Assembly: GCA_030524925.1 (NCBI GenBank)
Contig: JAUNFS010000003.1
Location: forward strand, 2,146 to 66,145
Direction: 5' to 3'
DNA: 64,000 nucleotides
Source of the DNA: a bacterium
GTDB taxonomy: Bacteria > Bacillota_I > Bacilli_A > RF39 > UBA660
Position 1 is the first letter of the stretch. Each line of letters opens with the position of its first letter. Below the pieces are notes generated by a model that was given only the letters and a program-made list of their open reading frames with translations, had not been told where the DNA came from and ran no database searches. The position numbers and the translations under genes were made by a program. Shown here one piece after another: positions 16,124 to 30,510 of the stretch.

Positions 16124-16140
16124 AACGATTAGTTTGTTTT

Positions 16141-16383
16141 CTAATCGTTTTCTTTTTTTATTAAATCATCTAATGTAACACCTAAAGCAACAGATATTCT
16201 ATAAAAGGTATCAACAGAAAAGTTATAACCGGCTTTATCACTTTGAATTTGTCTTATAAAATCGTGAGATAAATCTACCATTTCAGCAAGTTGCATTGAT
16301 GTTATGTTTTTTTCTTTTCTATATTTTCTAATGTTCTTTCTAATGGTATCGTAGATGTTGGCATCAAAAATTAATTTTTCCAT
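16141..16383 (-). CDS. XRE-family helix-turn-helix transcriptional regulator
   Basis: KNITSMQLAEMVDLSHDFIRQIQS HTH. 80 aa. AGGAGG SD. Confidence 0.8.
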   Translation of the reverse strand: MEKLIFDANIYDTIRKNIRKYRKEKNITSMQLAEMVDLSHDFIRQIQSDKAGYNFSVDTFYRISVALGVTLDDLIKKEND

Positions 16384-16397
16384 AATGTTATCTACCT

Positions 16398-16440
16398 CCT
16401 AACATAATTTTAAAGAAATATATCCAAAAAATATGTTAGG
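16398..16440. promoter_or_regulatory. 9-bp inverted repeat (CCTAACATA / TATGTTAGG), candidate operator
   Basis: Left arm overlaps the SD of the XRE gene. Right arm abuts the -35 of the rightward promoter. Confidence 0.35.
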
Positions 16441-16442
16441 TA

Positions 16443-16471
16443 TTGACTAACAACGATGTATGTGATAAAAT
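16443..16471 (+). promoter_or_regulatory. candidate promoter for the 200-aa membrane protein gene
   Basis: TTGACT-N17-TAAAAT. Confidence 0.45.
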
Positions 16472-16506
16472 TAAGTTATCATTAATAATATGATTTTATA
16501 TATGTT

Positions 16507-17109
16507 GTGAGGTGTTTAAAGGTGAAAAAATTCGGTAATATACTAATTGATATTGTATTGGTACTAGCATTTATAATAACTTGTGCTGGTACATTTGCAG
16601 AAAAAAGTGTTGGTTTTGGTGTTGCCACGATAATTATTATTGTATTGTTTATTTTAAATCTTAAAAAAGGTAATCAAGTTGTAGATAGTAAAGAAGTAAA
16701 AGATTTAGATGCTAAATATACAAATAGCAGTTGGCAAAAAATTGGAAGTTATGAAAATGCTTATCTATATATCAACGAAAATGATAAGAAAGTATTAATT
16801 AACAATCACGAATACAATTTTAAAGATATAATTTCTGCCGAAATAATGGAAAATGAAAAAGAACAAACATATACTGCAACAACTCAAAATGCTATATTCA
16901 CAAGGTCTTATAGTAGTGGTTCAAGAACTTATCATTATTGCAGTAAATTACAAGTAAAAATCGTTCTAAATTCAATAACTAGTCCACAAGAATATATTAC
17001 TTTTATAAGTAAAAAGACAAATAAAAATAGTAATAAATATAAAAGTGCTTATGATATGGCACAAAAATTCATATCAACTTTGCAAGTTATTATTAAGAAT
17101 AACCAATAA
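16507..17109 (+). CDS. two-TM membrane protein with C-terminal globular domain (element cargo)
   Basis: Two TM helices, then a ~130-aa soluble domain. Alternative GTG start at 16522 after GAGGTG. No family recognised. Confidence 0.5.
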   Translation: MRCLKVKKFGNILIDIVLVLAFIITCAGTFAEKSVGFGVATIIIIVLFILNLKKGNQVVDSKEVKDLDAKYTNSSWQKIGSYENAYLYINENDKKVLINNHEYNFKDIISAEIMENEKEQTYTATTQNAIFTRSYSSGSRTYHYCSKLQVKIVLNSITSPQEYITFISKKTNKNSNKYKSAYDMAQKFISTLQVIIKNNQ

Positions 17110-17140
17110 ATTAAGTCGTAAAGGCTTAATTTTTTAATTC

Positions 17141-17350
17141 TTATATATAAATGAAAATATATTTATCACTATTGTATTTATTAAAAATATAATCTTGAAG
17201 ATTTGCAATATTATTAAACTTTTTCCCTTTTTCTTCATAATTACTTATTATATACAAATTATTATTTCTAATTATAATGAATACTCCGGGATGCTTTTTA
17301 TCTAAAACTTTACTTTCTATTTTTGATATTCTTCTTTCTAGTGTATTCAT
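17141..17350 (-). CDS. hypothetical small protein (element)
   Basis: 69 aa. ATGA overlap with the upstream HTH gene. Confidence 0.4.
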   Translation of the reverse strand: MNTLERRISKIESKVLDKKHPGVFIIIRNNNLYIISNYEEKGKKFNNIANLQDYIFNKYNSDKYIFIYI

Positions 17351-17730
17351 TTTATATCAAGCCTTTCTTCTATATTATCAATTCTTTTTAATAATTCTAA
17401 TTGTTGATACTGCAAAATTCTATCTAATATAAAAGTAGATGCCTTTAATTGATTATTTTCATTTTCTGCATTATCAAGTATTGATAACAAATTATTTAGA
17501 GCCTTATCGCCTAAAGTATGCAATTTTATTTCTATACTTTGCAAGGCTTGTATTCTTAAATCAATTAATAGTTGTTTGAATACTGGGTCAGTTCGCCATC
17601 TATAAATTGTGTTTTCATCAACTCCAATTTTAGAGGCAACTACTTTGTTATTATCGCCAATTAAAAGTAAAGATAAAGCAGTTTGCTGTTTATCATTTAA
17701 TTTTTTAAAATTCTCTACAAAATTAGTCAT
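17347..17730 (-). CDS. small HTH protein (terminase-small-subunit-like / phBC6A51-type)
   Basis: LLLIGDNNKVVASKIGVDENTIYRWRTDPVFKQLL, an HTH followed by a coiled-coil tail. Confidence 0.5.
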   Translation of the reverse strand: MTNFVENFKKLNDKQQTALSLLLIGDNNKVVASKIGVDENTIYRWRTDPVFKQLLIDLRIQALQSIEIKLHTLGDKALNNLLSILDNAENENNQLKASTFILDRILQYQQLELLKRIDNIEERLDIK

Positions 17731-17784
17731 TTTCTATCATATCCTTTCATTAGTGTATTATTTGTAGAAAATGTAGTTATTGTA

Positions 17785-19521
17785 TTACTTTGTAATAATT
17801 ACATTATCTACACTTTCTACATTTACTACATTCTTTTTAATAGGTATTTTGTAAAAGACTTTTTGTCTTTCACTTTTTCCAGTTAGTTCGTTTTTAACTG
17901 GGTTTGGTGTTGTATAATAACCGATGCCATCATATTTCTTCAATAATGGTTTTATGGGGTCTAACATTGAATTTTTAACTTTATTATCTGCGAGGTTAGA
18001 ATATAATTTTTGCAGTTCTATTCCTAACTCTTTTAAACTACCAGCCCATTTTCCATTATTCTTGTTTACTAAAGTTTTTATAGTATCAACTAAAGGGTTA
18101 TTATTATATTCTTCTAATTCATTTCGCATCACTTTTTCTTCATAAGATGAAATCATCTGCCATTTACAACTTTCTTTATTGAAGTTTAAAATATATTGAT
18201 TTTGGTCTACATCTCTACCAGTAATAGATAAAATAGTTTCTTTATCGTATCTATTTTGTTTATCTAAAACTATTGTTGTATCAGCAGTACCAGTTATACC
18301 ATTTGTTCCGGATACTTTTCCAAAAACATCATTGTCATTGCCTTTTTTAAGATGATGTATTAAAATAATTGCCAAGCCATTTTCATCAGCAAAATCTTTA
18401 ATAGTTCCAACTTCTTTATAATCATTTGCATAATTGTTTTTTCCATTATAATCACTTCTAATTTTTTGAAGTGTATCTATTACTATAACCTTAATATAAG
18501 GTTCTTTTTTTATAATGCTTTTAATCTCATTAATTAAGCCATTTTCTATATCATCACACCTAGTTGCATAAATAAAATTATCTGGTGCTATTTTGCCATC
18601 TAATACCTTATTTAATCTGCTTTTAAGCCTATGTTCGCTATCTTCTAGTGCTAGATATAAGCATCCAGTTTTAAGTGTCTTAAAGCCTAAGAATGGCATA
18701 CCTTTACTAATACTTAAACATAAATCTAAAGCCATCCAACTTTTTCCTATTTTAGGTAAACTGCAAATTAAAGTAAGTCCTTGAGGTATTAAACTATCTA
18801 CATAAAATGTTATTGGTGGTAAATCTTTATCTTGTAATGATTTGGCAGTTGCATATTGAATATTATTTATCTTATCTTTATTTTTAATTTTATTAGTTTC
18901 TTTTTTTAGAGCACTTTTAACAATATTATTTAATTCTGCTTTTTTTAGTTTATCTTCAAAAACAATATTATTAATTATATTTGCTACATCTTTAATATTC
19001 ATTTCCGGATATGTTTCTTTTATTAATAATAGATGCTTATATAAATGGTTGTTTCTAGCATCACCATCAAGCATTCCAGTTAAATTATTTTTTGCTTTAT
19101 ATAATGGATAAAATTGCAATGGTAGTTCTGGTAAATTATCAATATTTAATTCTCTATTCATTTCTCTAGTTTTGCCATTTAATTTAATGACTGCATAGGC
19201 ATTTTTCCCGGTTAAATAATCACATTGAAAGCCTAAAACAGATATTACATCTGTGTTTCTTTTAAAACTATATCCAGTAGGCATTTTATAGTAGTAATGC
19301 TTTCCTTTAGTTGTTTTAACTCTTAAGGTGGGATAGTTTGCATCTATATAATCACATATTATATTTTCATTTATATTGTCATTGTCAAAATCTAAAACAA
19401 TTACATCATCACCAATAATAAGACCAGCATTTTCTAAATTATCAAAAGTAGTTTGATAGTATTGTTGGTTCATTGATTTAATATTAGGTGATTTATCATT
19501 TTTTAGTGGTATAAATTGCAT
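17785..19521 (-). CDS. replication protein: N-terminal Prim-Pol domain fused to RepA/AAA_25-type P-loop ATPase
   Basis: VLDFDND (DxD) and TTKGKHYYYK in the N-domain. Walker A SLPKIGKS. CLYLALEDS. Walker B VIVIDTLQKI. Confidence 0.75.
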   Translation of the reverse strand: MQFIPLKNDKSPNIKSMNQQYYQTTFDNLENAGLIIGDDVIVLDFDNDNINENIICDYIDANYPTLRVKTTKGKHYYYKMPTGYSFKRNTDVISVLGFQCDYLTGKNAYAVIKLNGKTREMNRELNIDNLPELPLQFYPLYKAKNNLTGMLDGDARNNHLYKHLLLIKETYPEMNIKDVANIINNIVFEDKLKKAELNNIVKSALKKETNKIKNKDKINNIQYATAKSLQDKDLPPITFYVDSLIPQGLTLICSLPKIGKSWMALDLCLSISKGMPFLGFKTLKTGCLYLALEDSEHRLKSRLNKVLDGKIAPDNFIYATRCDDIENGLINEIKSIIKKEPYIKVIVIDTLQKIRSDYNGKNNYANDYKEVGTIKDFADENGLAIILIHHLKKGNDNDVFGKVSGTNGITGTADTTIVLDKQNRYDKETILSITGRDVDQNQYILNFNKESCKWQMISSYEEKVMRNELEEYNNNPLVDTIKTLVNKNNGKWAGSLKELGIELQKLYSNLADNKVKNSMLDPIKPLLKKYDGIGYYTTPNPVKNELTGKSERQKVFYKIPIKKNVVNVESVDNVIITK

Positions 19522-19687
19522 CTTTTTTTATCCTTTCTTCATTATTGATTTTTTTCTTCTTTTCATCCTTGCTGGAAAGCCATTTTTTATATTCTTCTTT
19601 GTGATTATCAATATAGGTTGTTACATCATCAACTAAAATGCCAGAGGCAAATTCTTTTATTAGTTCATCACTAATCATAATTTTCAC
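19496..19687 (-). CDS. hypothetical small protein (element)
   Basis: 63 aa, overlaps neighbours on both sides in an operon-like way. Confidence 0.35.
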   Translation of the reverse strand: MKIMISDELIKEFASGILVDDVTTYIDNHKEEYKKWLSSKDEKKKKINNEERIKKDAIYTTKK

Positions 19688-19868
19688 CTGCTTTAATTAA
19701 CTCTTTGGCTTTCTTTTCCCAGAAAGTGGCATTGTGTTTTTTTACTTTATCTGGGTTATTCTTTCGCCAGTTTTTAAAATATAATTTTCTGGCATCATCA
19801 ATTTGCTTAGTTGAATATTTGTTAATAGCATTACTAAATTGTTTTTCATCATTTTTATTATTATTCAT
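19671..19868 (-). CDS. hypothetical small basic protein (element)
   Basis: ATG at 19868 follows AAAGGAGG; the track start 19886 lies upstream of the SD. Confidence 0.4.
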   Translation of the reverse strand: MNNNKNDEKQFSNAINKYSTKQIDDARKLYFKNWRKNNPDKVKKHNATFWEKKAKELIKAGENYD

Positions 19869-19905
19869 ACAAGAGCCTCCTTTCAAATTTTTTTCTTTTA
19901 TTTTC

Positions 19906-19934
19906 TTGCATTTTTTTGAAAAATGATATATTAT
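19906..19934 (+). promoter_or_regulatory. candidate rightward promoter of the element switch region
   Basis: TTGCAT-N17-TATTAT. Confidence 0.4.
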
Positions 19935-19938
19935 ATAA

Positions 19939-19968
19939 ATGTAAAAGTTATTTCCTTTTCTTTTACAT
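19939..19968. promoter_or_regulatory. 9-bp inverted repeat ATGTAAAAG-N12-CTTTTACAT, candidate operator
   Basis: Perfect arms, located between the two face-to-face candidate promoters. Confidence 0.35.
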
Positions 19969-19988
19969 AAGTGAAGTTTAACACAGAA

Positions 19989-20016
19989 ATTATAGAAAAG
20001 GGATAAAAATATACAA
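19989..20016 (-). promoter_or_regulatory. candidate leftward promoter for the replication operon
   Basis: Minus strand TTGTAT-N16-TATAAT. Confidence 0.4.
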
Positions 20017-20070
20017 AAAAAAATATTTGTTAATTTTGATAAATAAATTTCACAAAAAGGAAGGATAATT

Positions 20071-20658
20071 ATGGAAAGAAAAGAGAGAGAAAAAAATCAT
20101 ATTGACCCAGAAGTTATTAAAGAAAATGTTAATAATACAAAATATACAAATGACATTAAGCAAATGTTATTGTGCTTTTCATTAGAACTTAATAGGTTGC
20201 TATATAAAAAAGAAATAAGTCAAGAAGATTTTTCTAAAATAACAAAAATAGGTCAAACAAGTATTTCTAAATATAGAAATGGTACTGCACTACCAAAACA
20301 AGAAAATATTGATATTATTGCAAAGGCTCTTGGAGTATCAAGTGAATATTTAGTTGGTAAAAGCAAAACAAAAGACTATTCATATAATCAATTAAATAAA
20401 TTATTTGGCTTTAATGATGAAACAATTAATAATCTTTCAAGTTGTTTTAACAAAGACTATCTAAATAATATGTTTGGTGGTGAATTAGATAGTATTAATT
20501 ACTTTCTTGAAAGACTAAAAAATTATGTTGATGCCAAAAATGAATATAAAAAAGAAAAAAAGGAATTAAACAAGGCTTGGGATAAAAATAAAATTGATGA
20601 GGCTAAATATTATTTAACAAATTCACTAATTGATTTAATAGATGAAAATTTAAAATAG
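20071..20658 (+). CDS. XRE-family HTH regulator (repressor-like) with C-terminal extension
   Basis: ISQEDFSKITKIGQTSISKYRNGTALPKQENIDIIAKALGVSSEYLVG. AGGAAGGA SD. Confidence 0.75.
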   Translation: MERKEREKNHIDPEVIKENVNNTKYTNDIKQMLLCFSLELNRLLYKKEISQEDFSKITKIGQTSISKYRNGTALPKQENIDIIAKALGVSSEYLVGKSKTKDYSYNQLNKLFGFNDETINNLSSCFNKDYLNNMFGGELDSINYFLERLKNYVDAKNEYKKEKKELNKAWDKNKIDEAKYYLTNSLIDLIDENLK

Positions 20659-20673
20659 AAAGGAGTTTATATT

Positions 20674-22218
20674 ATGAATATTGCACTTTATTTAAGATAT
20701 AGTTCACAAAATCAAACAGAGGCATCTATTGAGGGACAAAGAGAGGTTTGCCAAGAATATGCCAGAGTAAAAAAATATAATATTATATGCGAATATATTG
20801 ACAGAGCCCACTCGGCTACAACAGATAATCGCCCAGAATTCAAAAGAATGATTAAAGATAGTTCTAAAGGTTTATTTGATGCAGTAGTAGTTTATCAATT
20901 TGATAGATTTGCAAGAAATAGATTAGATAGTCAAAAATATAAACAACTTTTAAAGAAAAATAATGTAATGGTTTTATCTGCTCGTGAGGAAATACCAGAA
21001 GATGCTTCTGGTATACTTATGGAAAGTGTTTTAGAGGGGATGGCAGAATATTATAGTGTTGAGTTAGGACAAAAGGTTTCTCGTGGAATGAAAACAAATG
21101 CCAGTAAATGCTATTATAATGGTGGTTCAGTTCCTTTAGGTTTAAAACTAGAGGTTGTAGAAAAAATACAAACATCTGGTAAAATAAAAGAAAAAAAGAA
21201 ATTTGTTATTGATGAAGAAAAAGCCTCTATTATAAAAACTATATTTGAAAAATTTAACAAAGGCGAAAGTATGATTAAAATTATAAATTATCTAAATAAA
21301 TTAGGCATTAAAACAAGCAAAAATAAGCCATTTAATAAAAATAGTATGAGAAGAATATTAGAAAATAAAAAGTATATTGGTATCTATTCTTATGATGGTG
21401 TAGATACTCCAGATGCTATTCCAAGAATAATTAGTGATGATTTATTTTATAAAGTACAAGATAAACTTGGCAAATATAGATGTGCTCCCGGTAGACAAAA
21501 AGCCAGAACGGAATATCTTTTAACAACTAAATTATTCTGTGGTTATTGTGAAAATATGATGGTTGGTGTTGCCGGTACTTCTAAAAATGGTACATTGCAT
21601 AATTACTATACTTGTAAGGGCAGAAAAACTTGTGGATGCAAAAAAGCCAATATCAAGAAAATATACATTGAGGATATAGTTGTAGATATGGCAAGAGAGG
21701 TCTTGACAGATAAAGAAATACCTATTATTGCTAAAAATGTGGTTGAATATGCAGAAAGCCACGATAACAGCGATTTAAAATATTTGCAAGATAAATTAAA
21801 AAATTTAAACAAACAAAATGAAAGTTTAACTAATAGTTTGAAATATTGTGAAGTTGATGCTGTAAGAAAAACAATTATTGATGAAATGACAAAAATTGAA
21901 AATGAAAAAATAAATACTCTTGAGGCAATTAAAGAAGAAGAAAAAAATCATACTTATATTGAATATGACAAAGTAGTATATTTTCTAGAACAAATGAGAA
22001 AAGGCGATATAAACGATATGAGGTATAGACAAAGACTTATAAATTGCTTTATTAATAAGGTGTTCTTATGGGATGATAAAATTATTACTACTTTTAATAT
22101 TAAAAAAAGTGATATTTCTACTAAATTGCCTAATTTAAAAGACTTGGAGTGTTCGTTTGAAGTTTCAAATGGTGCACCATTGATAAATTTGTTCGGACTA
22201 TTCGGACTTTATATATAG
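20674..22218 (+). CDS. large serine recombinase (resolvase/invertase N-domain, recombinase domain, zinc ribbon, coiled coil)
   Basis: IALYLRYSSQNQ...IEGQ catalytic Ser region. VVVYQFDRFARN. CGYC...YYTCKGRKTCGC zinc ribbon. 514 aa. Confidence 0.9.
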   Translation: MNIALYLRYSSQNQTEASIEGQREVCQEYARVKKYNIICEYIDRAHSATTDNRPEFKRMIKDSSKGLFDAVVVYQFDRFARNRLDSQKYKQLLKKNNVMVLSAREEIPEDASGILMESVLEGMAEYYSVELGQKVSRGMKTNASKCYYNGGSVPLGLKLEVVEKIQTSGKIKEKKKFVIDEEKASIIKTIFEKFNKGESMIKIINYLNKLGIKTSKNKPFNKNSMRRILENKKYIGIYSYDGVDTPDAIPRIISDDLFYKVQDKLGKYRCAPGRQKARTEYLLTTKLFCGYCENMMVGVAGTSKNGTLHNYYTCKGRKTCGCKKANIKKIYIEDIVVDMAREVLTDKEIPIIAKNVVEYAESHDNSDLKYLQDKLKNLNKQNESLTNSLKYCEVDAVRKTIIDEMTKIENEKINTLEAIKEEEKNHTYIEYDKVVYFLEQMRKGDINDMRYRQRLINCFINKVFLWDDKIITTFNIKKSDISTKLPNLKDLECSFEVSNGAPLINLFGLFGLYI

Positions 22219-22245
22219 AATCAATCGCATGATTGATTTTTTTTT
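22219..22245 (+). terminator. rho-independent terminator after the recombinase gene
   Basis: AATCAATC-GCAT-GATTGATT followed by T7. Confidence 0.6.
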
Positions 22246-22266
22246 ATAAAACGAAAAAATCATGAA

Positions 22267-22479
22267 ATGGTTGAATTATATTATAATATAAGACAGACAA
22301 TAAATGAGCTTATTGATGAGTATAATTTAGAAAAATCACAAAACGAAATAATTAAATCTTTTTCTAATAAACTTACAAAACAATTTGGGCAAGGTTTTAG
22401 TGTTCCAAGTTTAAAGAAGATGAAAAAATTTTATCAAGTATTTAACGGTGGTTCCACACTGTGGAACCACTTGAAATAA
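22267..22479 (+). pseudogene. internal fragment of a DUF1016 (YhcG-like PDDEXK nuclease) gene
   Basis: ELYYNIRQTI...IIKSFSNKLTKQFGQGFSVPSLKKMKKFYQVF resembles the LYWEIG...LSKDL..EFG.GFS..NL..MR.FY N-domain. The nuclease domain is missing. Confidence 0.4.
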
Positions 22480-22722
22480 AAATCACAAATTCGGGAAAAT
22501 ATGAATAATTAAGTAGCATTAAATTATTGCTACTTTTTCTATTCTTTGGTAAAAAATGTATAGTGATTGATTTTTTTGTTTATGATAATTTATAATAACA
22601 AGTGCAACACCAGCTGATGTAATTGAAATTTAACTTAGAAATAAAGTGATTTTTTCTTTTTTATTTGTACTTTGATTTACTCAGCATTTAATATATGTTA
22701 TATTATAATCAAGGGAGGTCAA

Positions 22723-22998
22723 ATGGATAATCGTTTAATTGAAAAACTAAAGTGCTTAGATGAATCAATGGCAAGAACACATTTAAAAATTACCAGAGAT
22801 AATTTAAATGAACTACAAGCAGATCAAGCTTTAAATTTATTACATAGCCAGTATAAAGATTGTCTAACAATATTGTCACTTTTAGGTGAAGAATTTGTTT
22901 ATCGTTTTAGATACGCTATATTAAGTGATATAGAAGCACTATTAGTTAAGACTAACTACTTTAAAAAAACAACTGGACAAGCTGGGATTATGAAATGA
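22723..22998 (+). CDS. hypothetical 91-aa protein
   Basis: ATG 22723 follows AAGGGAGG; the track start 22672 is upstream of the SD. Followed by a terminator. Confidence 0.4.
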   Translation: MDNRLIEKLKCLDESMARTHLKITRDNLNELQADQALNLLHSQYKDCLTILSLLGEEFVYRFRYAILSDIEALLVKTNYFKKTTGQAGIMK

Positions 22999-23022
22999 CA
23001 CTTTAAATAGTGTCTTTTTTTT
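22997..23022 (+). terminator. rho-independent terminator
   Basis: GACACT-TTAAAT-AGTGTC followed by T8. Confidence 0.6.
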
Positions 23023-23023
23023 G

Positions 23024-23052
23024 CAAAAGAAAAAATCTCCGAAGAGATTTTG
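23024..23052 (-). terminator. rho-independent terminator closing the seven-gene operon
   Basis: Minus strand AAATCTC-TTCG-GAGATTT followed by a T-rich tract, 10 nt after the stop at 23062. Confidence 0.55.
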
Positions 23053-23061
23053 ATTTGTTTG

Positions 23062-23394
23062 TTAATTACAGTTCCAAGGTTCTAAGACACAATCTTGGCA
23101 TTTTTGGAAATTACTTGCTGGCATTTCACGATAACCATTAATTGTACTAAATAACCACATAACGATTGTTGGTACAAAGAAAATTAATACACCGGCAATA
23201 GCACGATACATTAAACTCTTACTAGCCTTCTTAATGTCATCTTCTTTACCACCTACTACGGCTTTTCCTAAATCAAACATTCCATATCCAATAATTAATA
23301 ATGGAATAGCTATTTTAAATACTGTTAGTATCCAACCTACAAATCCTAAAACGTCTGCTGCTTGATCACAAAAACCAGTTATATTCATACTCAC
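23062..23394 (-). CDS. 110-aa two-TM protein, VirB2/TrbC-pilin-like topology, Cys-rich tail
   Basis: TM1 VLGFVGWILTVFKIAIPLLIIGYGMF. Basic loop DLGKAVVGGKEDDIKKASKSLMYR. TM2 AIAGVLIFFVPTIVMWLF. Tail FQKCQDCVLEPWNCN. Confidence 0.5.
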   Translation of the reverse strand: MSMNITGFCDQAADVLGFVGWILTVFKIAIPLLIIGYGMFDLGKAVVGGKEDDIKKASKSLMYRAIAGVLIFFVPTIVMWLFSTINGYREMPASNFQKCQDCVLEPWNCN

Positions 23395-23446
23395 ATCTCC
23401 CTTACATACTTAAATTCTATATGAATTTATGGTAATTGTCAACAAA

Positions 23447-24562
23447 TTATTTAAATATACCAAAAATTCTACTGCCTTCTTGTCTACTAAAACCTAGTTT
23501 TACAAGAAGTCTATCTACTGCTAACAATCTATCTGCCCTGTCGTTAATGACTGGCATGTTATAGAAGACTTTAAATTTTGTTTCATATTCAAAATTTGTT
23601 AGTTCTTCATCTTTGATAGCGCTTTGATTTAATATTATTTTTCCATCTTTGACTTTTTCACGTAAATTGTTATCTTTTTTTAAAGCTTTATTTAAACTAA
23701 TGATACCTGGATTAACTAAGTATAGTATATCCGTACATAGTTGTTTTTCTGGTAAATCATTTAAATCTATTAATACAATATCAATATTTCTAAGTGCATT
23801 TATTTTGAATCTTAATTCTTCTACTGATGTACAAAAAGAAATATCTTGATCATTAAAGTAGATAGAATCTTGTTTAAACATTTCAAAAGCAATTACTTTA
23901 TAATTGGCTTTCAATTGTTTTAACATCATGTGCATTAGAGTTGTTGCACCAGCATGGTCTGTGACATTTTGAAGACCAATGATTCTAGCTCTAACTTTAA
24001 TTTGTTCTTCTTCTCTAACATAGTCTACATTACTAAATACGTTAGGATTAGTAAATGCAGGTCTATATTCATCATTATTAAGATTTACATTACTATTTGG
24101 ATTAGCAATGTATGATTGATTACCAAAAGAATTTGGTGAAGCACTTACAGTTTGATTCATCATATTTTGATTTTGATAAGATGATTCACTTAAATACTTT
24201 TTAACATTATCTAATGTATTTGGATGATTTAATAAATAATTTATTCCAGCAGCATTTCTAGTAAAGTTATAATAACCGTTTTCAACTAAATATCTTAGAT
24301 AATTATTACTACTGACAAGTTCACTATCATTAAGAAGTATAATTACTTTTGATGCTGGAAAGAAACTTAAAAAGTTTAAAACCTCTTTAATATCAAAATA
24401 ATTCTTAATTGCTGTTATATCAATTATTGCTTTACTATATATAAAGTTAGATAACTGACTTTCTAGCATATCTCTAGTAAACTCACCACTTAAAGTTTTA
24501 ATGGTATCTAAATTAGCACTATCAATGATAATTCCATTAAGATTTTTTATTGCAATATACAT
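23447..24562 (-). CDS. TadZ/CpaE-like protein: receiver-like N-domain, Asn/Gln-rich linker, MinD/ParA-like domain with degenerate P-loop
   Basis: N-domain IIDITAIKN...KVIILLND...LVENGYYNF. Linker SYQNQNMMNQTVSASPNSFGNQSYIANPNSNVNLNN. IIGLQNVTDHAGATT replaces xKGGxGKT. VLIDLN is Walker-B-like. Confidence 0.5.
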   Translation of the reverse strand: MYIAIKNLNGIIIDSANLDTIKTLSGEFTRDMLESQLSNFIYSKAIIDITAIKNYFDIKEVLNFLSFFPASKVIILLNDSELVSSNNYLRYLVENGYYNFTRNAAGINYLLNHPNTLDNVKKYLSESSYQNQNMMNQTVSASPNSFGNQSYIANPNSNVNLNNDEYRPAFTNPNVFSNVDYVREEEQIKVRARIIGLQNVTDHAGATTLMHMMLKQLKANYKVIAFEMFKQDSIYFNDQDISFCTSVEELRFKINALRNIDIVLIDLNDLPEKQLCTDILYLVNPGIISLNKALKKDNNLREKVKDGKIILNQSAIKDEELTNFEYETKFKVFYNMPVINDRADRLLAVDRLLVKLGFSRQEGSRIFGIFK

Positions 24563-24570
24563 TTAATCAC

Positions 24571-25047
24571 CTAATTCCATCCTGGTACTTCATCTTTGGC
24601 AAAGTATATAGGTTTAGTTTCACCTGATATAGGAAATGTAAATATTTCACCTAATATTGGTAGATCTACTCTAAAAAAGACGGTTACTTTGTAATAACTT
24701 TTTTTGATATTACCACTATCGTCAACGGTTTTAGCAACGCAATATCTATATTTGGTTGCATCTGCGGCATAGGGATCAAACCCGCTTACAAGAGTGCCGT
24801 CACCTTGTTCAGTTAGATTTTTAGGACATTTGCTATATACTAAATAACCAACTGTTGATAAATAATCTTTAATTTCTTGTTGACTATCATCACTAAGTCC
24901 CTCTTTTTTTTCAATGATATTTACGATACCATTTTTAACCTTAAATGCCTTAGAGTAATTAATTGAAAGCGCTAAAAAGCTTGAAAATAAAACTATAAAA
25001 ACTAAAACAATTGTTAAAAGCCAAGTTCCACCAATTGCTTCTCTCAT
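24571..25047 (-). CDS. TadE-like pseudopilin candidate (158 aa)
   Basis: MREAIGG, hydrophobic TWLLTIVLVFIVLFSSFLAL, then SINYSKAFKVKNGIVN, which resembles the post-TM block of TadE-family proteins. Confidence 0.5.
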   Translation of the reverse strand: MREAIGGTWLLTIVLVFIVLFSSFLALSINYSKAFKVKNGIVNIIEKKEGLSDDSQQEIKDYLSTVGYLVYSKCPKNLTEQGDGTLVSGFDPYAADATKYRYCVAKTVDDSGNIKKSYYKVTVFFRVDLPILGEIFTFPISGETKPIYFAKDEVPGWN

Positions 25048-25062
25048 TTATATTATTGCTTT

Positions 25063-25311
25063 CTAATTAGTGTCCTTATTTGGGCATTGAACAGATTGTG
25101 GATTAGTGCAATTGTCATCTTGACAATAAAGGCAACTACACATTTTTGCTCCTGACGTACAATTACAACTAAAGGCTTGTGTACACTTTGTACTCCTTGT
25201 GATATTTGACTTAATTGATGGCCATATTAATGTAGTAAATACTACTCCTATTGCGGCGATTGCTACTACTGCTACTGCAGTCATACTTAATTCGCCTGAT
25301 GCTTCTTTCAT
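25063..25311 (-). CDS. 82-aa Flp/pilin-like protein with Cys-rich C-terminal module
   Basis: MKEASGE, then LSMTAVAVVAIAAIGVVFTTLIW, then 8 Cys in the last 40 residues. Strong SD TAGGAGGA. Own promoter. Confidence 0.55.
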   Translation of the reverse strand: MKEASGELSMTAVAVVAIAAIGVVFTTLIWPSIKSNITRSTKCTQAFSCNCTSGAKMCSCLYCQDDNCTNPQSVQCPNKDTN

Positions 25312-25336
25312 TTTTTATTCCTCCTATCTTAAAATA

Positions 25337-25365
25337 ATTATAATATAGTTTAACTTCTAAATCAA
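25337..25365 (-). promoter_or_regulatory. consensus-like sigma-A promoter for the 82-aa pilin candidate
   Basis: Minus strand TTGATT-N17-TATAAT, about 25 nt upstream of the SD. Confidence 0.55.
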
Positions 25366-25372
25366 TATTTAT

Positions 25373-25404
25373 GTAAAAAAAAGATAACAATTTCTTGTTA
25401 TCTT
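25373..25404 (-). terminator. rho-independent terminator/attenuator after the 153-aa gene
   Basis: Perfect 10-bp stem AAGATAACAA/TTGTTATCTT with a 4-nt loop, followed on the minus strand by T8. The stop codon lies in the stem. Confidence 0.6.
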
Positions 25405-25859
25405 GAACTAATACCTGTACGATCTGGGAAGTATGTACTTGGCTTATTCTTACTATTATGGGCATCTTCTAAAATGCCATCAATTTTGTTTACTACAGCA
25501 TAATTTTCTTGGGTACTCTCAACGTTGAATGAGCCAGTCACGGTTGCTACTTTAACACTTACTTTTGGTGGTGCTTCATATATATCATAGAAAGATATTT
25601 TGTAGTTTTTATTAATATTTATGGTTTCTGAAAATCTTCTAATAAAGTTTTCTACAAATTTTTCTTTAATAATTCTTATTTCCCCGTACTTACGATAATG
25701 AGCTAAATCTAATGAATCTCCTAGAGCTGCATCTGTTATTTCTTTAATTAAATATACGTCTTGTTCGTTAGTGGTTGAATAGTTTTGTAAGATTAGCATT
25801 ATTCCTAGAATACCTAGTCCAAAAACTATAATCCAATATCCCCATACACTTTCTTTCAT
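25398..25859 (-). CDS. pseudopilin-like protein (153 aa)
   Basis: MKESVWG, hydrophobic YWIIVFGLGILGIMLIL, then a soluble domain. AGGAGGTG SD. Confidence 0.5.
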   Translation of the reverse strand: MKESVWGYWIIVFGLGILGIMLILQNYSTTNEQDVYLIKEITDAALGDSLDLAHYRKYGEIRIIKEKFVENFIRRFSETININKNYKISFYDIYEAPPKVSVKVATVTGSFNVESTQENYAVVNKIDGILEDAHNSKNKPSTYFPDRTGISSR

Positions 25860-25874
25860 TTACTTTTGCACCTC

Positions 25875-28800
25875 CTATGGATAGATAATACTATCATCGT
25901 CAATATTTACGTCTGGATAGCCGTCTGGCAATAACTGTCTCATTGTACCTACTTTAAATTGATTATCGCTAGCAAAATAGTATTTGTACTTTTGTCTACC
26001 AGATGTATTACTTGCATATCTTGTAACAAAGCTACTTATACATTCTTTGCCATCACTGTTACAGCTAAATAAGCCGCCTGAATAGCCACTGCTCCAGTCA
26101 TAGTAGTTACTATTCTTATTATATTTCTTGATTTCTTGCATTGTTTTAGTATCTAAATTAAATACATATTCAAGAGTTTCGGAATCTGGTGTATCGTCAA
26201 ACATTCCGTCTTTTAAACCAATTTGCTTGATTCGGCTTTCAGCTGCCTCGCCTTTGGCATTTGACCAGTTATCACCTAAATCTCCACTATCTTTACGATT
26301 ATTTGGATCCATGTTGCTAGGATTTATAGTTCTATAAATGTATTCTGGATAGAAATCTTCGCTTTCTCTTCCATCGCAATCAGGTCCTTGACAGCACTCC
26401 GCTCCAAAACAACAAGTAGGACAATCACGGTCGTATAGCACCTCTCTATTACAATATACACATAAACTTTCAAATACGTTTCCTTCTGCTAATTTTTGAT
26501 TTATACGATATTGTACATTAGATTCATTTTTACTTTTACCCTTAGGCTCTATTTCTAAGTGGCCATTATTTTCAATTGTAAACCAAGTTCTATATTTACC
26601 TTGATAATTTGTTATTTGTACATTAAATACATAACCTATTTCTAAAACATCAGGATAACTATAACTTTGCTGGTCAGTAATATATAAACCGCTTGGTACT
26701 AAGCTATAGTAGCCAACTGTTGGTTTATAGTATAGGTCAGCTTTACCAGTTTTTTCACTGTCAGCTTCTCCTCTATCTGTTTCCTCAACATTTTCATAAG
26801 CTGTGTTATAACCTTTTGAATAATCATTTGCTCCTAATTTTCCATAAAGAGGGCCTTCATGCTTACCGCTTGTATCTTTGTAATTTACATTTGTACTATT
26901 TGTTGTTGCTCCAGATGTATTTGGAAGTGTACTTACATGTGTCCAATATTTGCCATCTGATTCTACAGATTTAACAAACTCTACTTCTTGCTCTACAACT
27001 TTAGTATTACCACTTACTGAATCGTAGTATTGTTGCGTATATGTAAATGATAGATCAGGATCTAAAATATATTTCCATGAATTTTTAAAATTACTATTAG
27101 CTTTTTGACAAGAAGTCTTTTTTTCTTCTAGGCCTTGACGTTTTTCGTATGCTTTAACATATGCGTTATGAGCACCTACAACATTTGTTGATGGTTTTGG
27201 TGACACGGCGCAAATTTGTGATGTTGTCCATGAAACAGTTTCTTTTCCTCTTACTCCACTATTGTAAACACCATAATAATAATCATCTTGGGTTCTACCT
27301 GTATATGTAATATATTTTTCTTGTGACCAGCCTAAGCAATGATTATCTTCAGGGTCACGACCACCAGAACAATACCAACAACTGGAATTCATTGGGTGAC
27401 TTGCAGAATCATCTATTGCATCTTGCAGATTAGCTTCTTTTTGCCATGCATCAAATTTTGCCTTTTCATCTCTTACAGCAGCAAGATAATCTCTTTGCCA
27501 TACGTCGTAAGCTGTATAGAAGAAGGCAGTGATTTCACCTTTAACTTCTGGCTGAGAATATTGTCCATCGGAGTCTTTAGTAAATACGAAGAATCTACCA
27601 CTTGTAGATGCAGTTGTCATTGGGTAAATCATGTGATTATTCTCTGTTGTATAAAGTTTGCAATATTCGTTTGTTTCAATATTATTATTGTTATTGAATG
27701 TTTTATCACGCCAGTATTGCATTGCATTTTTTGTATAGTTTTGAAAGCTATCTAAAGTTGCTTGATTATTCATAACTTTATCTTCATATTTTTTTAATTT
27801 GCTCAATAATCCATCACGATTTACTTGTTCTACAGATGAATCTGATGGCATTTGGTTTACTGTTGAGCCATCTGACGCACATTCGCCTTGACAATCCATT
27901 ATTAAATTAACATGGTCTTGATCTTTGCATTGTTCATTATAAATTTCTTCTTGAGATTTTGAAAGATTGAAATTTTCAAGTCCTTCACAACATCCTGCGT
28001 TAATGTATTCTTCTATAGTTGCGTTTTTATTCCCTAATTTTAATTGGCCATTTTCATATTTACATACATTTGGTAGAGTGATGTCTAAGTCAAATGTTAG
28101 TTTGTGATGCATGCTGTCTAAGTAGCCAACCATTCTTTGGTTTGATTCATTTGGGCTTTCTACTAATAAGCCTACGCCTGATGCTCCAAATGGGAAGAAA
28201 TATTTATAGTCAATTTCAACTGTTATTTTAGGATTTGAAGCTATTTCTTCATAACTTCCGTATACTTCTAGTTCAAATGTATCATCGCCATTTAACAAGT
28301 CTGTTCCTTCAGAAATGTTTGCTTTGCACTCACCTTTTGAACAGCTTACTTTTTCAAAGGTTATTTCTGGGTTTAGATATGCAAGGCCATAACTTGAGAT
28401 TGCATTTTTAATATCCTCAATACCTTCAACTTTTACTTTTACTTTTTTATGGTAGCCGTATGATGAACCAGGAACATCTTCTGGAGTTCCGTCTACGACA
28501 AATTCTATATTATAATCTTTGGTTTCTGCTGTATAAATTCCTCCGTAGCCACTTAAAAATGTTCTACAGAAAGCACTTGAGCCACCTGCTAGTTTACCAG
28601 CACAGTAGATTGCTTGAGATGCTTGGTAGTTTTGGTCAGTCTTAAGTGTTGGAAATTTAGGATATTTAGGTTCTAAACCTTCAAAAGCGTTAGCTCCATT
28701 AATATATTTTTCAATGCTTTCCCATTCAGCTCCACCACTTTTGCCATAACCTAGGCCGGCATTAAAAAATCTTACTGCGGTATTGATATCAATATAATCT

Positions 28801-29156
28801 ACAGAATTTTTTTCTGCCAAATAGATTTGATGCATCTTTATAAGTCCAGCATCATAACCACCATTATCAACTGATAACTCTTTACCATAATATAATGTTT
28901 TAGGAGTGTTTCTGTTTGGGTCAATACAATATAAGTCAACTTCAGTGCCTTCAATTGTTGTTTTGTGATGCCAGCTAGTTGTTGTATATCCATCAGTAAA
29001 TACATAACCAGTAGTTTCTGTTGGGTTATCTGTAAGAGGAGTTTCTAATAAACAGTAGCCATTAGCTGCTGAAGGTCTGCCATCACATATACCATTTGAG
29101 GCATCAACATTTATAGTTACAAATAAAAGAGATATTAATAATAGATACTTCTTCAT
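25875..29156 (-). CDS. 1093-aa secreted Cys-rich protein, N-terminal thioester-domain-like region, no cell-wall sorting signal
   Basis: Signal peptide MKKYLLLISLLFVTINVDAS. LYCIDPNRNTP...NSVDYIDINTAVRFF parallels the adhesin motif at 12089-12223. About 29 Cys, including CPTCCFGAECCQGPDC. C-terminus lacks LPxTG and a TM. Confidence 0.6.
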   Translation of the reverse strand: MKKYLLLISLLFVTINVDASNGICDGRPSAANGYCLLETPLTDNPTETTGYVFTDGYTTTSWHHKTTIEGTEVDLYCIDPNRNTPKTLYYGKELSVDNGGYDAGLIKMHQIYLAEKNSVDYIDINTAVRFFNAGLGYGKSGGAEWESIEKYINGANAFEGLEPKYPKFPTLKTDQNYQASQAIYCAGKLAGGSSAFCRTFLSGYGGIYTAETKDYNIEFVVDGTPEDVPGSSYGYHKKVKVKVEGIEDIKNAISSYGLAYLNPEITFEKVSCSKGECKANISEGTDLLNGDDTFELEVYGSYEEIASNPKITVEIDYKYFFPFGASGVGLLVESPNESNQRMVGYLDSMHHKLTFDLDITLPNVCKYENGQLKLGNKNATIEEYINAGCCEGLENFNLSKSQEEIYNEQCKDQDHVNLIMDCQGECASDGSTVNQMPSDSSVEQVNRDGLLSKLKKYEDKVMNNQATLDSFQNYTKNAMQYWRDKTFNNNNNIETNEYCKLYTTENNHMIYPMTTASTSGRFFVFTKDSDGQYSQPEVKGEITAFFYTAYDVWQRDYLAAVRDEKAKFDAWQKEANLQDAIDDSASHPMNSSCWYCSGGRDPEDNHCLGWSQEKYITYTGRTQDDYYYGVYNSGVRGKETVSWTTSQICAVSPKPSTNVVGAHNAYVKAYEKRQGLEEKKTSCQKANSNFKNSWKYILDPDLSFTYTQQYYDSVSGNTKVVEQEVEFVKSVESDGKYWTHVSTLPNTSGATTNSTNVNYKDTSGKHEGPLYGKLGANDYSKGYNTAYENVEETDRGEADSEKTGKADLYYKPTVGYYSLVPSGLYITDQQSYSYPDVLEIGYVFNVQITNYQGKYRTWFTIENNGHLEIEPKGKSKNESNVQYRINQKLAEGNVFESLCVYCNREVLYDRDCPTCCFGAECCQGPDCDGRESEDFYPEYIYRTINPSNMDPNNRKDSGDLGDNWSNAKGEAAESRIKQIGLKDGMFDDTPDSETLEYVFNLDTKTMQEIKKYNKNSNYYDWSSGYSGGLFSCNSDGKECISSFVTRYASNTSGRQKYKYYFASDNQFKVGTMRQLLPDGYPDVNIDDDSIIYP

Positions 29157-29854
29157 TATAATACACGCTTCTTTCTATAAATTATCACACCTACTACACC
29201 ACCAGCTATTAAAACTGTTCCCCCAATTATGTATAGATAATTTTCTTTTAAGAACTTTAAAAACTTATTTTCTTTAGTTGGATCAGCATCGCCGTCTTTG
29301 CCATTTTCTATCTCTGTTATTTTATTTACTATTTGAGTAATATCCATGTCTACTTCTTTAGTAACAAAAGTTTGACAGTATGGTAAGTCTTCATGCCCTT
29401 TACATACTAAATATTCTGAATAAGGATTATATTTTGGTTTAGTAAATGAAAAACTTCTTAATCTTTTTCTACCGCAATTTTCAGTGCTTGAATATACAAT
29501 AATGTCATAAGATATGATATTATCTTGATCTTCTGATGTTATTGTATATTTACCATTTTCAGTATCACTGTAATATATTGATTTTTTTTCTTTGGTTTTA
29601 GAGTCAGTTACTTCTAATGATAAATTTTCAGTTATATTATAAAAAGATATAATAAAGTTATAACTTATTTGCTCGTACTCGCCACCGCCTTCACTAGTAA
29701 CTTTATTTTTGATTTCTTTTAATTCATAATTTGCTTGTACTAGTGCTGCTTCTTTATTTAGATTTGCTTGTTCTTTGTATGAACATTCAGCGGCATAAAC
29801 GTTAACATAAAAAAACAATAAAGGTATTAATATTTTAAAATATTTCACATCCAT
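29156..29854 (-). CDS. signal-peptide protein with C-terminal TM anchor (about 230 aa)
   Basis: KYFKILIPLLFFYVNVYA-AEC signal. C-terminal YIIGGTVLIAGGVVGVIIYRKKRVL. Start is ambiguous (ATG 29854 or GTG 29848 after AGGTGA). Stop overlaps the next start (ATGA). Confidence 0.55.
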   Translation of the reverse strand: MDVKYFKILIPLLFFYVNVYAAECSYKEQANLNKEAALVQANYELKEIKNKVTSEGGGEYEQISYNFIISFYNITENLSLEVTDSKTKEKKSIYYSDTENGKYTITSEDQDNIISYDIIVYSSTENCGRKRLRSFSFTKPKYNPYSEYLVCKGHEDLPYCQTFVTKEVDMDITQIVNKITEIENGKDGDADPTKENKFLKFLKENYLYIIGGTVLIAGGVVGVIIYRKKRVL

Positions 29855-29870
29855 CACCTATCCTATGACA

Positions 29871-29899
29871 AGTATAGCATAACTAAGTGTCATTTTCAA
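29871..29899 (-). promoter_or_regulatory. candidate promoter of the seven-gene operon
   Basis: Minus strand TTGAAA-N17-TATACT. Confidence 0.5.
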
Positions 29900-29955
29900 A
29901 CTATTTTAAGGTGTTAAACGATGAATTTTTATGGTATATTAGTGTTGGTGAAATA

Positions 29956-30510
29956 ATGAAAAAGTATAAAACTATTAAAATCTTATTTATATTTTTAGTT
30001 GCTTCTAGTATTTCAAATAAATATCCTTTATTTGGTGGATTATTTGGAGTATTATTAATTTACTTTTTAAATTTTAAAGATGTTAATAAAAAACTTAGTT
30101 TTAGTAAGAGAAATTTAAAGTATTTACTTTTTGGATCACTTGTTTGTTTGTTATTTTTTATTAAGTATTTTATAGGAAATAGTGAGCATGATAGTTTTTT
30201 AATTTCATTAATAAATGCGAGAGCTTGGTATTATTTTATATATTTGGTAATACTTTCCCCTATTTTGGAAGAGCTTACTTTTAGATATGGGTTTGATACT
30301 ATTAAAAATGAGTATTTGTATTTAATAATTAGTTCTTTATTATTTAGTGTTATTAGAGTTAATAGTTTATCTGAATATTTATATTTTATTATTGCTTTTA
30401 TATTTAGTTTACTTTTAGGTTATGTTTATAGGAAAAGTGATGATATTAAGTTACCAATATGTTTTCATATGTTATATAATTTGTTATTTTATTTAATGGT
30501 GGTGTTCTAA
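29956..30510 (+). CDS. CPBP family intramembrane protease
   Basis: LEELTFRYGF and CFHMLYNL motifs, polytopic. ATG 29956 follows GGTGAA; the track start 29887 is unlikely. Confidence 0.7.
   Translation: MKKYKTIKILFIFLVASSISNKYPLFGGLFGVLLIYFLNFKDVNKKLSFSKRNLKYLLFGSLVCLLFFIKYFIGNSEHDSFLISLINARAWYYFIYLVILSPILEELTFRYGFDTIKNEYLYLIISSLLFSVIRVNSLSEYLYFIIAFIFSLLLGYVYRKSDDIKLPICFHMLYNLLFYLMVVF

Follow-up and report, generated by a model that had tools for sequence, protein, structure and literature searches.

What does a small cysteine-rich protein with a promoter of its own do in an uncultured bacterium? The protein is g82, 82 residues long, encoded in a 64-kb stretch of contig JAUNFS010000003.1 (the window, meaning the whole stretch analyzed). 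On balance, g82 is probably a pilin-like protein, the main subunit of a filament of atypical Tad type (type IVc-like) in uncultured low-GC gut Bacilli. Synteny and protein architecture both lend the pilin reading good support, though it is unproven; in its workings g82 would resemble a Tad/Flp major pilin. The logic of the gene is ordinary, that of a major subunit with its own promoter, whereas its sequence class and its genomic surroundings are unusual.

The gene lies in a cluster read entirely from the minus strand in the order g233, g1093, the DUF5411 protein, g82, g158, g371 and g110. The gap between the DUF5411 gene and g82 is 86 nt long and holds a hairpin, a promoter and a ribosome-binding site. 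Relatives' loci are coded L001 onward, and metagenomic homologues are coded P0296 and the like. The features on either side of the gap and within it are these:

25398–25859, minus strand: DUF5411 protein of 153 residues (Pfam PF17424, 1.4e-54), candidate minor pilin
25375–25404, minus strand: AT-rich 10-bp hairpin with a GAAA loop and U8 tail, probably the intrinsic terminator for the genes ahead of it
25337–25365, minus strand: predicted sigma-A-type promoter TTGATT-17-TATAAT for g82 and the genes behind it, from comparative conservation
25320–25325, minus strand: Shine-Dalgarno sequence AGGAGG, 8 nt ahead of the g82 ATG, from sequence
25063–25311, minus strand: g82, 82-residue pilin-like protein; open reading frame (ORF) with a leader-like MKEASG start, a hydrophobic helix and a Cys-rich head (residues 43–76)

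The initial annotation had named both the promoter and a strong Shine-Dalgarno sequence, and both are found there on the minus strand. The −35 box TTGATT (25365–25360) and the −10 box TATAAT (25342–25337) are separated by a 17-nt spacer and match the consensus at 10 of 12 positions. Judged alone in AT-rich DNA, such a site is no better than chance: 130 sites of this quality were observed in 16 kb, with 105 ± 10 expected in DNA of 29% G+C. The comparison across species used 71 distinct orthologous loci, required the −10 box to lie 15–45 nt before the ATG and took shuffled upstream regions as control. Upstream of g82, a site matching at least 10 of 12 positions is present in 76% of loci and one matching at least 9 of 12 in 99%; the shuffled regions give 5.6% and 32%. 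The corresponding values are 3% and 26% upstream of g158 and 0% and 17% upstream of g371. The intergenic sequences have diverged almost wholly, and TTGAnn-N17-TATAAT is retained in nearly every locus, ending 21–37 nt before the ATG, while a GGAGG or GGAGA motif precedes g82 in nearly all orthologous loci listed. This conservation of position argues that the g82 promoter is real. Its hexamers, spacing and placement agree with a sigma-70/sigma-A promoter and a predicted transcription start.

The private promoter proposed at the outset is borne out by its placement across species, and the expression logic of a major subunit gains support as well: the conserved promoter fits the predicted excess of g82, as does the next gene, g158, which starts 15 nt past the g82 stop without a Shine-Dalgarno sequence of its own. 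Upstream of g110, sites of at least 10 of 12 and at least 9 of 12 matches each occur in 89% of loci, with a perfect 12/12 promoter in 11 of the 18 loci tested and 11/12 in the window. Given this near-consensus promoter of its own, g110 looks like a second strongly expressed small subunit heading a separate transcription unit.

Of the 71 regions upstream of g82, 32 contain the hexamer TGTAAA and 26 contain TTTACA, with about 3 expected from shuffles. These hexamers lie in the 45 nt upstream of the −35 box (L004–L077), often as an inverted and sometimes as a direct repeat, and 31 of 72 regions upstream of g110 also contain TGTAAA. In the window, TTTACAT (25371–25377) is the only such element, and it overlaps the T tail of the terminator. 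These elements may be the site of a regulator shared by g82 and g110.

The hairpin ahead of the promoter has the 5' arm AAGATAACAA (25404–25395), a GAAA loop (25394–25391) and the 3' arm TTGTTATCTT (25390–25381), followed by six T; its 3' end reads as a run of eight T after a C. The TAA stop codon of the DUF5411 gene (25400–25398) falls within the 5' arm, and both the T8 run and the enclosed stop are present on the minus strand as first described. The hairpin folds with −9.6 kcal/mol (z = −3.6), a stability equaled by 2 of 200 shuffles. Its stem is a perfect 10 bp with only two G-C pairs, which explains why it is unlisted by a consensus terminator scan that requires at least three. The stem is identical in L001 and L008, and hairpin, promoter and ribosome-binding site are kept within the window's clade. 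The hairpin is a probable intrinsic terminator of the upstream unit, as judged from its sequence. Terminator-like hairpins before the g82 promoter occur in this clade and in a minority of other lineages; a lax criterion finds them in 28 of 71 loci, of which about a dozen are convincing by eye. In L145 a hairpin with T7 and then TTGATA-17-TATAAT lie between the TadC-like gene and the first pilin gene. The internal terminator that had been proposed is a probable one in the window and has a counterpart in the intact L145, and such hairpins are found in only some lineages. The order of terminator and then promoter recurs across lineages, and the promoter alone is universal. An Rfam search over 22900–30000 matched no RNA family.

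The protein belongs to a large family without a name. The homologues number 616 in a collection at 90% identity and form 497 clusters at 50% identity, all unnamed or "hypothetical". The 72 species genomes with a homologue are all uncultured metagenome-assembled genomes (MAGs), labeled Bacilli, Tenericutes, Mollicutes, Erysipelotrichaceae or "Firmicutes bacterium CAG:582", with a few bins otherwise labeled. An exact-sequence look-up of g82 gave no match, nor did Pfam (E ≤ 0.01), NCBIfam or PHROGs, and at E ≤ 5 the 103 family members searched against Pfam gave only scattered matches to transmembrane (TM) or Cys-rich families.

Conservation divides the protein in two. Residues 1–42 are nearly invariant (MKEASGELSMTAVAVVAIAAIGVVFTTLIWPSIKxNITRSTxC, through C43), and the tail varies in both length and sequence; more distant members read MKEATGELNMTVITVVAIAA... 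The start resembles a type IV pilin leader, with MKEASG followed by LSMTAVAVVAIAAIGVVFTTLIW, the hydrophobic start of a model helix spanning residues 5–45. G6 is conserved at 90% or more, the Glu that would be at +1 (E7) is invariant in the family, and the protein may be cleaved after G6. The AlphaFold model of g82 (predicted local distance difference test score, pLDDT, 77) continues from this helix into strands 47–50, 57–63 and 71–77, which form a three-stranded sheet. As modeled, it is a miniature pilin "lollipop".

A comparison with L001 shows the same division in nonsynonymous (dN) and synonymous (dS) substitutions. Over the first 42 codons dN is 0.011 and dS 0.069, over the head dN rises to 0.44 and dS to 1.4, and the whole gene has dN/dS 0.52; the neighboring genes have dN/dS of 0.04–0.23 and dS of 0.37–0.80. 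These first 42 codons (window 25186–25311, L001 10001–10126) are almost identical together with the intergenic region upstream. The near-identity of this 5' part suggests recombination that swaps head segments, or constraint at the nucleotide level. Tandem genes of the family, two to four of them, are found in L065 (9743–9982), L078 (4636–5476), L081 (30–618), L145 (8946–9470) and L170 (3411–4875). The second usually ends C-x-[YW]-K-G, and the tandems look like sets of pilin paralogues.

The cysteines point to disulfides. All 8 Cys that had been noted in the C-terminal part of g82 are present, within residues 43–76, but only C43, C49, C60 and C76 are invariant among the 103 homologues. The other four form two optional pairs, aligned with window C51+C58 and C63+C68, which are the expected disulfide partners, and the total is 4, 6 or 8 and never odd in 103 of 103 sequences. 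No CxxC occurs among the four invariant Cys. Because cysteines are gained and lost in pairs, totals are even and the invariant set lacks CxxC, the pattern favors two to four disulfides in an extracytoplasmic head over a metal site. Of the two chemistries first suggested, disulfide formation is favored in the form of bonds inside the head, but metal binding is disfavored.

The loci of relatives supply the parts of a motor. The remaining features of the window's cluster are as follows:

29156–29857, minus strand: g233, secreted Cys-rich protein with a C-terminal TM anchor
25875–29156, minus strand: g1093, secreted Cys-rich protein
24571–25047, minus strand: g158, 158 residues, N-terminus MREAIGGTW, candidate minor pilin with a TadE/F-like role
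23447–24562, minus strand: g371, two-domain MinD/ParA-like protein, TadZ/CpaE-like as judged by AlphaFold and Foldseek
23414–23442, minus strand: predicted g110 promoter TTGACA-17-TAGAAT, 11 of 12 consensus matches
23062–23394, minus strand: g110, two-TM hairpin protein, VirB2-like (borderline Pfam PF18895)

The genes g82, g158, g371 and g110 form a fixed four-gene core: g158 adjoins g82 in nearly all loci, and g371 adjoins g82–g158 in 69 of 70 species, as does g110. In L031, L078–80, L143, L145, L150, L157, L161, L162 and L170 the core or its homologues stand directly behind CpaB, a CpaF-type (TadA/CpaF) ATPase and two polytopic membrane genes in the position of a TadB/C platform. L031, from the window's own lineage and in the same chromosomal slot beside FtsW, a metallophosphoesterase and an Rce1-like gene, reads CpaB, CpaB, CpaF-like, TadB-like, TadC-like, g158 paralogue, g82, g158, g371, g110. 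L078–80, which hold the distant homologue P0390, read DUF5411, CpaB-like, T2SSE ATPase, two polytopic proteins, pilin, pilin, g158, g158. The best solved relatives of the T2SSE ATPase are CpaF proteins (1.5e-17), and the protein beside it passes the Pfam RcpC/CpaB model with 37.5 bits (cut-off 28.8). The same lineage also has motor-only loci, L082–85, with CpaB-CpaB-CpaF-TadB-TadC and no pilin gene, which implies that motor and pilin genes commonly sit at separate loci. The CpaF-like protein is 84–97% identical across very many MAGs.

A second module is found on the other side of the core. Behind the core, L086 and L087 encode proteins with VirB2-like domains, one large polytopic protein, one small protein with two TM segments and a split ATPase of VirB4 type. 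The NCBIfam models VirB4_plasma (Mbov_0397 family, 3.5e-107) and Mbov_0396 family (1.5e-7) are matched below their cut-offs. No relaxase or coupling protein follows in these two loci, and none was seen among the genes listed nearby. Counting only loci with enough flanking sequence on the side counted, 18 of 36 species genomes and 9 of 12 independent metagenome contigs have a VirB4-like gene no more than 10 kb downstream of the core, and CpaF lies upstream in 1 of 49 and 6 of 21. All parts are contiguous in L145 (metagenome contig OJMO01000419.1, 1–20462). There, g233-like, g1093-like, DUF5411, CpaB, CpaF-like, TadB-like and TadC-like genes are followed by terminator, promoter, two pilins, two g158 genes and a g371-like gene, and then by a g110-like gene, further proteins with VirB2-like domains, VirB6-like, VirB3-like and split VirB4. 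L170 has the CpaF module and the full core with no VirB4 nearby. At its start, L145 also carries a divergently transcribed, membrane-anchored thioredoxin-like CxxC protein; a role for this neighbor as a dedicated disulfide catalyst was dropped, as it is present only in L145.

The window's cluster corresponds to an L145-type cluster minus two segments, CpaB–TadC in the gap between DUF5411 and g82 and VirB6–VirB4 after g110. Between the Rce1-like gene and g82 it has g233-g1093-DUF5411 where L031, L082 and L084 have CpaB-CpaF-TadB-TadC. Scans of the window covered 50 ORFs, which are most, not all, of its ORFs of at least 100 residues, and none of these was found to encode an assembly ATPase, a platform protein or a prepilin peptidase. 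The same reduced layout is seen in L001–3, L008 and L090–92. All seven genes of the window's cluster are intact, and the substitution ratios indicate that the retained subunit genes are under purifying selection. If the window's system is active, motor and platform genes must act from elsewhere in the genome. The motor context expected of a pilin is found for g82 in other genomes, where homologues stand behind CpaB, CpaF and two polytopic genes, but not among the window's scanned ORFs, which lack ATPase, platform and peptidase.

Several findings weigh against a pilin. No Pfam, NCBIfam or PHROG pilin model matches g82, and none in Pfam matches the 103 homologues; Flp/Fap (PF04964) is not the family that g82 itself matches, nor is it among the 25 families, of 42, that the homologues match most often at E ≤ 5. 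The processing motif G/XXXXEY is absent. The family reads MKEA[ST]G-ELSMTAV or ELNMTVI, with no Glu at +5, where Thr stands, and Ala or Val at +6. No A24 prepilin peptidase was seen among the window ORFs scanned or among the genes listed within about 10 kb in the annotated relative loci. Charges flanking the helix are neutral before it and +3 after it, which by the positive-inside rule does not favor an N-in orientation. A Foldseek search of the g82 model against the PDB returned nothing significant (best E-value 1.2); among the 50 matches listed, the sole pilin-type entry is a pseudopilin at rank 41 (E-value 6.4). P0296, P0303, P0309, P0318 and P0387 fuse helix and head behind extra N-terminal membrane segments, which take the place of the MKEATGEL start and bear a possible resemblance to DUF4190; the N-terminus of P0309 carries a zinc ribbon, and that of P0318 is rich in Gln and Pro. 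Such a fusion is not tolerable in a pilin unless cleaved and is hard to reconcile with a simple pilin role of these members. The proteins called TadB/TadC-like match no family model, T2SSF included, and are so named from position, size and literature only. ATPase, platform and CpaB are not co-located with g82 in the window or in 48 of the 49 species loci with enough upstream sequence, no T2SSE (nor VirB4) ATPase gene is among the scanned window ORFs, and linkage of the core to CpaF is rarer than its linkage to the VirB4-like module. In sum, a leader ending in Gly, a near-invariant helix, a variable head and CpaF-linked homologues uphold the pilin candidate, but it fails as a member of the Flp family, having no profile match, no G/XXXXEY, no nearby TadV and no helix-only architecture, the g82 model being a helix plus three strands. 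Nor does it have the Glu at +5 that marks type IV pilins at large.

The assignment of g82, g158 and DUF5411 to a Tad-like motor is nonetheless the most economical one, because no further pilin candidate exists in the motor-only loci and the N-termini follow the pattern of type IV filament subunits. Under this assignment, transcription of the upstream unit would largely end at the AT-rich hairpin, and the private promoter and ribosome-binding site would yield g82 in large excess over g158 and g371. The protein would enter the membrane through its invariant N-terminal helix and might be cut after Gly6 by some peptidase, in a recognition step common to g158 and DUF5411. A CpaF-type motor would then polymerize it; the helices would pack together as the core of the filament, and the small variable head, held by two to four disulfides, would face outward. 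g158 and DUF5411 would serve as minor pilins and g371 as a TadZ-like docking or localization factor.

A bolder version of this model is a rather doubtful one. It holds that g82 represents a new class of type IV filament subunit, with a six-residue leader, Glu at +1 in place of +5, a cystine-knotted mini-head and no A24 peptidase for its maturation, in an undescribed composite Tad-like/VirB2/3/4/6 machine of gut Bacilli whose pilus is coupled genetically, and perhaps functionally, to the VirB module. That module would be a relative of Mycoplasma ICE machinery, and no relaxase is seen near it. Functional coupling of pilus and channel, as in Ups/Ced or the Patescibacteria type IV secretion system (T4SS), is speculation that the linkage of the core to the VirB4 module suggests by analogy. 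If true, the composite machine would be a bacterial counterpart of archaeal Ups plus Ced, for cell-to-cell DNA exchange or contact-dependent transfer.

That linkage can also be read the other way, with g82 and g158 as components of the VirB2/3/4/6-like (T4SS-like) apparatus itself, for instance at the tip or in an accessory position of a VirB2-type pilus, or in its envelope channel. VirB6/3/4-like genes within 10 kb downstream (18/36 and 9/12 loci) are far more frequent than CpaF upstream, the VirB2-like g110 is always the last core gene, and the CpaF-like ATPase scores best against the NCBIfam VirB11 model, well below the cut-off. This reading is unlikely, however: the T4SS-like unit has VirB2-like subunits and a promoter of its own, L031 and L170 keep the full core with CpaF and no VirB4 nearby, motor-only Tad loci have no pilin candidate outside the g82 family, and a short Gly-ending leader before a hydrophobic helix is the pattern of type IV filaments rather than of VirB2. 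A protein that never polymerizes, an abundant, anchored, single-pass and disulfide-knotted surface or machine-associated peptide, would account for the lack of a pilin model, fold match or prepilin peptidase in the sequence covered, for a charge distribution unlike that of a classical prepilin and for the five homologues with extra membrane segments. It is distinctly unlikely in view of the near-invariant hydrophobic helix joined to a hypervariable head, which is the pattern of a filament subunit, the tandem paralogues that resemble pilin gene sets (L065, L078, L081, L145, L170) and the fixed position of g82 directly behind the platform genes.

The remaining two explanations concern the window's locus and the tail of the protein. 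The locus could be a remnant that has lost both ATPase modules, leaving g82 an orphan without a filament to build; g233-g1093-DUF5411 in the slot of CpaB-CpaF-TadB-TadC, the lack of T2SSE and VirB4 genes among the 50 ORFs scanned and the recurrence of the reduced layout in seven other loci all fit such decay. It is very unlikely given seven intact genes, dN/dS of 0.04–0.23 relative to L001 (0.52 for g82, with its N-terminus nearly unchanged), regulatory elements conserved within the clade and a lineage that as a rule keeps its motor and its pilin modules at separate loci. Barely credible is a g82 tail that binds metal in the cytoplasm, or a g82 that is the precursor of a secreted Cys-rich peptide cut by a CPBP (Rce1-like) protease. 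The positive-inside rule would place the tail in the cytoplasm, weak scattered Pfam matches include Cys-rich/knottin and FeoB-associated families, and an Rce1-like gene adjoins the cluster in the window, L031, L082 and L084. The four invariant Cys nevertheless form no CxxC pairs, extra Cys come strictly in pairs with an even total, the tail is polar and hypervariable, no peptide exporter lies nearby, and no Rce1-like gene stands next to the core in L004, L034 or L145. Metal binding and a bacteriocin-type precursor were accordingly ranked low on Cys parity and synteny.

The Rce1-like (CPBP) intramembrane protease gene lies at 29887–30510 on the plus strand, divergent and directly beside the start of the cluster, and a second copy is found at 4257–4952 on the minus strand. 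Such a gene also stands beside the CpaB-CpaF module in L031 (2035–2904) and in L082–85, and none is next to the core where the core sits elsewhere in the genome (L004, L034, L145). The protease may be a conserved neighbor and nothing more; alternatively, with no A24 peptidase found, it is a candidate for the processing step.

The genes on either side of g82 encode candidate minor pilins. The DUF5411 gene stands directly upstream of CpaB–CpaF in intact clusters, and its product begins MKESVWGYW, resembling the starts of g82 and g158. The three proteins share the motif M-[KR]-E-[AS]-x-(x)-G, with hydrophobic residues behind it, and are otherwise unrelated. Pilins and minor pilins of one system share an N-terminal signal in the same way. 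The common start suggests one shared recognition step. g158 has a hydrophobic segment and two invariant Cys. A possible paralogy of g158 and DUF5411 was rejected, as a profile comparison aligns only their first 12 residues and they are separate families. The g158 profile gave only chance-level matches against PDB sequences (best E = 0.18), and g158, g371, g233 and g1093 have no match in Pfam, NCBIfam or PHROGs.

The model of g371 (pLDDT 82.5) has an N-terminal alpha/beta domain, a disordered linker (131–185) and a MinD/ParA-like domain. Foldseek places it near HypB/MinD/FlhG at 1e-6 to 1e-4 and, more weakly, near Eubacterium rectale TadZ (3fkq) at 8e-4, with low TM-scores and a 446-column alignment; a PDB sequence search gave no match. 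At the Walker A position it reads HAGATT where GKT/S is expected, the Lys being replaced. g110 has Cys in both predicted outer tails and scores 26.0 bits against Pfam PF18895 (T4SS_pilin; cut-off 26.6); its orthologues and paralogues score 14–22 bits, and paralogues in other genomes have signal peptides.

The genes ahead of the core (window 25875–29857; L034 3781–9550) code for Cys-rich, secreted products. Several of these products are very large, several have a TM anchor at the C-terminus, and they may be pilus-associated adhesins. Homologues of g233 and g1093 precede DUF5411–CpaB–CpaF in L143, L145 and L150, and g1093 is fast-evolving, with 72% identity and dN 0.18 relative to L001.

A comparison with known systems brings out what is shared and what is not. 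As in Flp/Tad (type IVc) systems, among them flp-1 and tadZABC of Aggregatibacter and PilA and CpaF of Caulobacter, there is a small pilin gene with its own strong expression, here predicted, and minor-pilin-like proteins that carry the N-terminal motif of the pilin. Relatives add a CpaF-type ATPase, a CpaB/RcpC protein and two membrane proteins of platform size, and the modeled g371 would be a TadZ-like MinD/ParA protein without the Walker A lysine. Tad pilins are without a globular head (PMC12786226). In contrast to Flp/Tad, g82 has a leader of only 6 residues, no Flp_Fap match, no G/XXXXEY and a predicted disulfide-stabilized beta head, the cluster has no TadV peptidase, and the platform proteins have no T2SSF match.

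In Clostridia, DUF5411 co-occurs with CpaF and PilC in a predicted secretion operon of Roseburia, Ruminococcus and Eubacterium, according to the part of Miller et al. 2022 (PMC9523054) that deals with it. DUF5411 stands beside a CpaF-type ATPase and platform genes there as well, the other genes being unannotated, and the cluster of the relatives is probably related to that operon. The same part of the paper names no pilin family, MinD-like gene, VirB2-like gene or VirB4 link, and it concerns Clostridia, not Bacilli. The uncultured gut order TANB77 has a Tad-like cluster with CpaB, TadZ/CpaE, TadA, TadB/C and then unannotated pilin-like genes, several with their own predicted promoters (PMC11680825). 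The likeness lies in an uncultured gut Firmicutes host, unannotated pilin-like genes and predicted private promoters. The TANB77 pilin-like proteins differ in being 143–621 residues long and, set apart by description, apparently of other families, and Table 1 of that paper has no VirB2/VirB4-like genes.

The VirB2-like arrays, VirB6-like, VirB3-like and split VirB4 proteins of the relatives resemble the relaxase-less VirB2/3/4/6 systems, archaeal Ced and the Patescibacteria T4SS. The nearest protein by sequence to their VirB4-like protein is the VirB4 of a Mycoplasma integrative and conjugative element. A type IV pilus together with a VirB module recalls Ups plus Ced of Sulfolobales (PMC11868833, PMC9905601) and the Patescibacteria T4SS (PMC12102498). 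In contrast to those systems, the present one is bacterial and joins both modules physically to a single pilin core, and it may serve DNA exchange, adhesion or delivery. The VirB module is absent from the window. No description of the g82 pilin family or of the combined CpaF-core-VirB4 cluster was found in the literature, nor a combined CpaF plus VirB4 system in the literature on monoderms.

For the host lineage ("Tenericutes", "Mollicutes" or "Erysipelotrichaceae" in public records) the only sources here are metagenome assemblies, chiefly of gut and rumen samples, and g82 could bear on how these Bacilli attach to hosts or to other cells. The family also marks an annotation gap: a conserved, hypervariable surface subunit of about 500 clusters, with predicted strong expression, carries no annotation of any kind. 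It would be an obvious strain marker, antigen and colonization factor. In a different clade of uncultured gut bacteria, a pilin-like protein has been reported to modulate the response to immunotherapy (PMC11680825). A subunit without the Flp motif, Glu at +5 or a nearby prepilin peptidase raises the question of how it matures and is assembled. The recurrent linkage of Tad-like motor, pilin core and VirB4, with no relaxase seen nearby, suggests a testable coupling of pilus and transfer channel in bacteria.

A mobile element occupies window 14700–23000, between a polysaccharide deacetylase gene and g110. Its genes include AbiTii (15283–15969), a PrimPol/AAA_25 helicase (17785–19521), a helix-turn-helix (HTH) regulator (20071–20658) and a large serine recombinase (20674–22218). 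That the pilin cluster is part of this element was ruled out, as the syntenic L001–3 keep the cluster without it; there only about 1 kb, with a single small ORF on the minus strand, separates the deacetylase gene from the g110 homologue. Two further loci of the window are unrelated to g82. An MqsR-like toxin and an HTH/MqsA-like antitoxin with a SocA/Panacea domain are encoded at 33739–35018 on the minus strand. A sortase-dependent SpaA-type pilus locus, with sortase-domain and SpaA-domain proteins, lies at 7432–12406, and a second sortase is annotated in L001 at the syntenic position.

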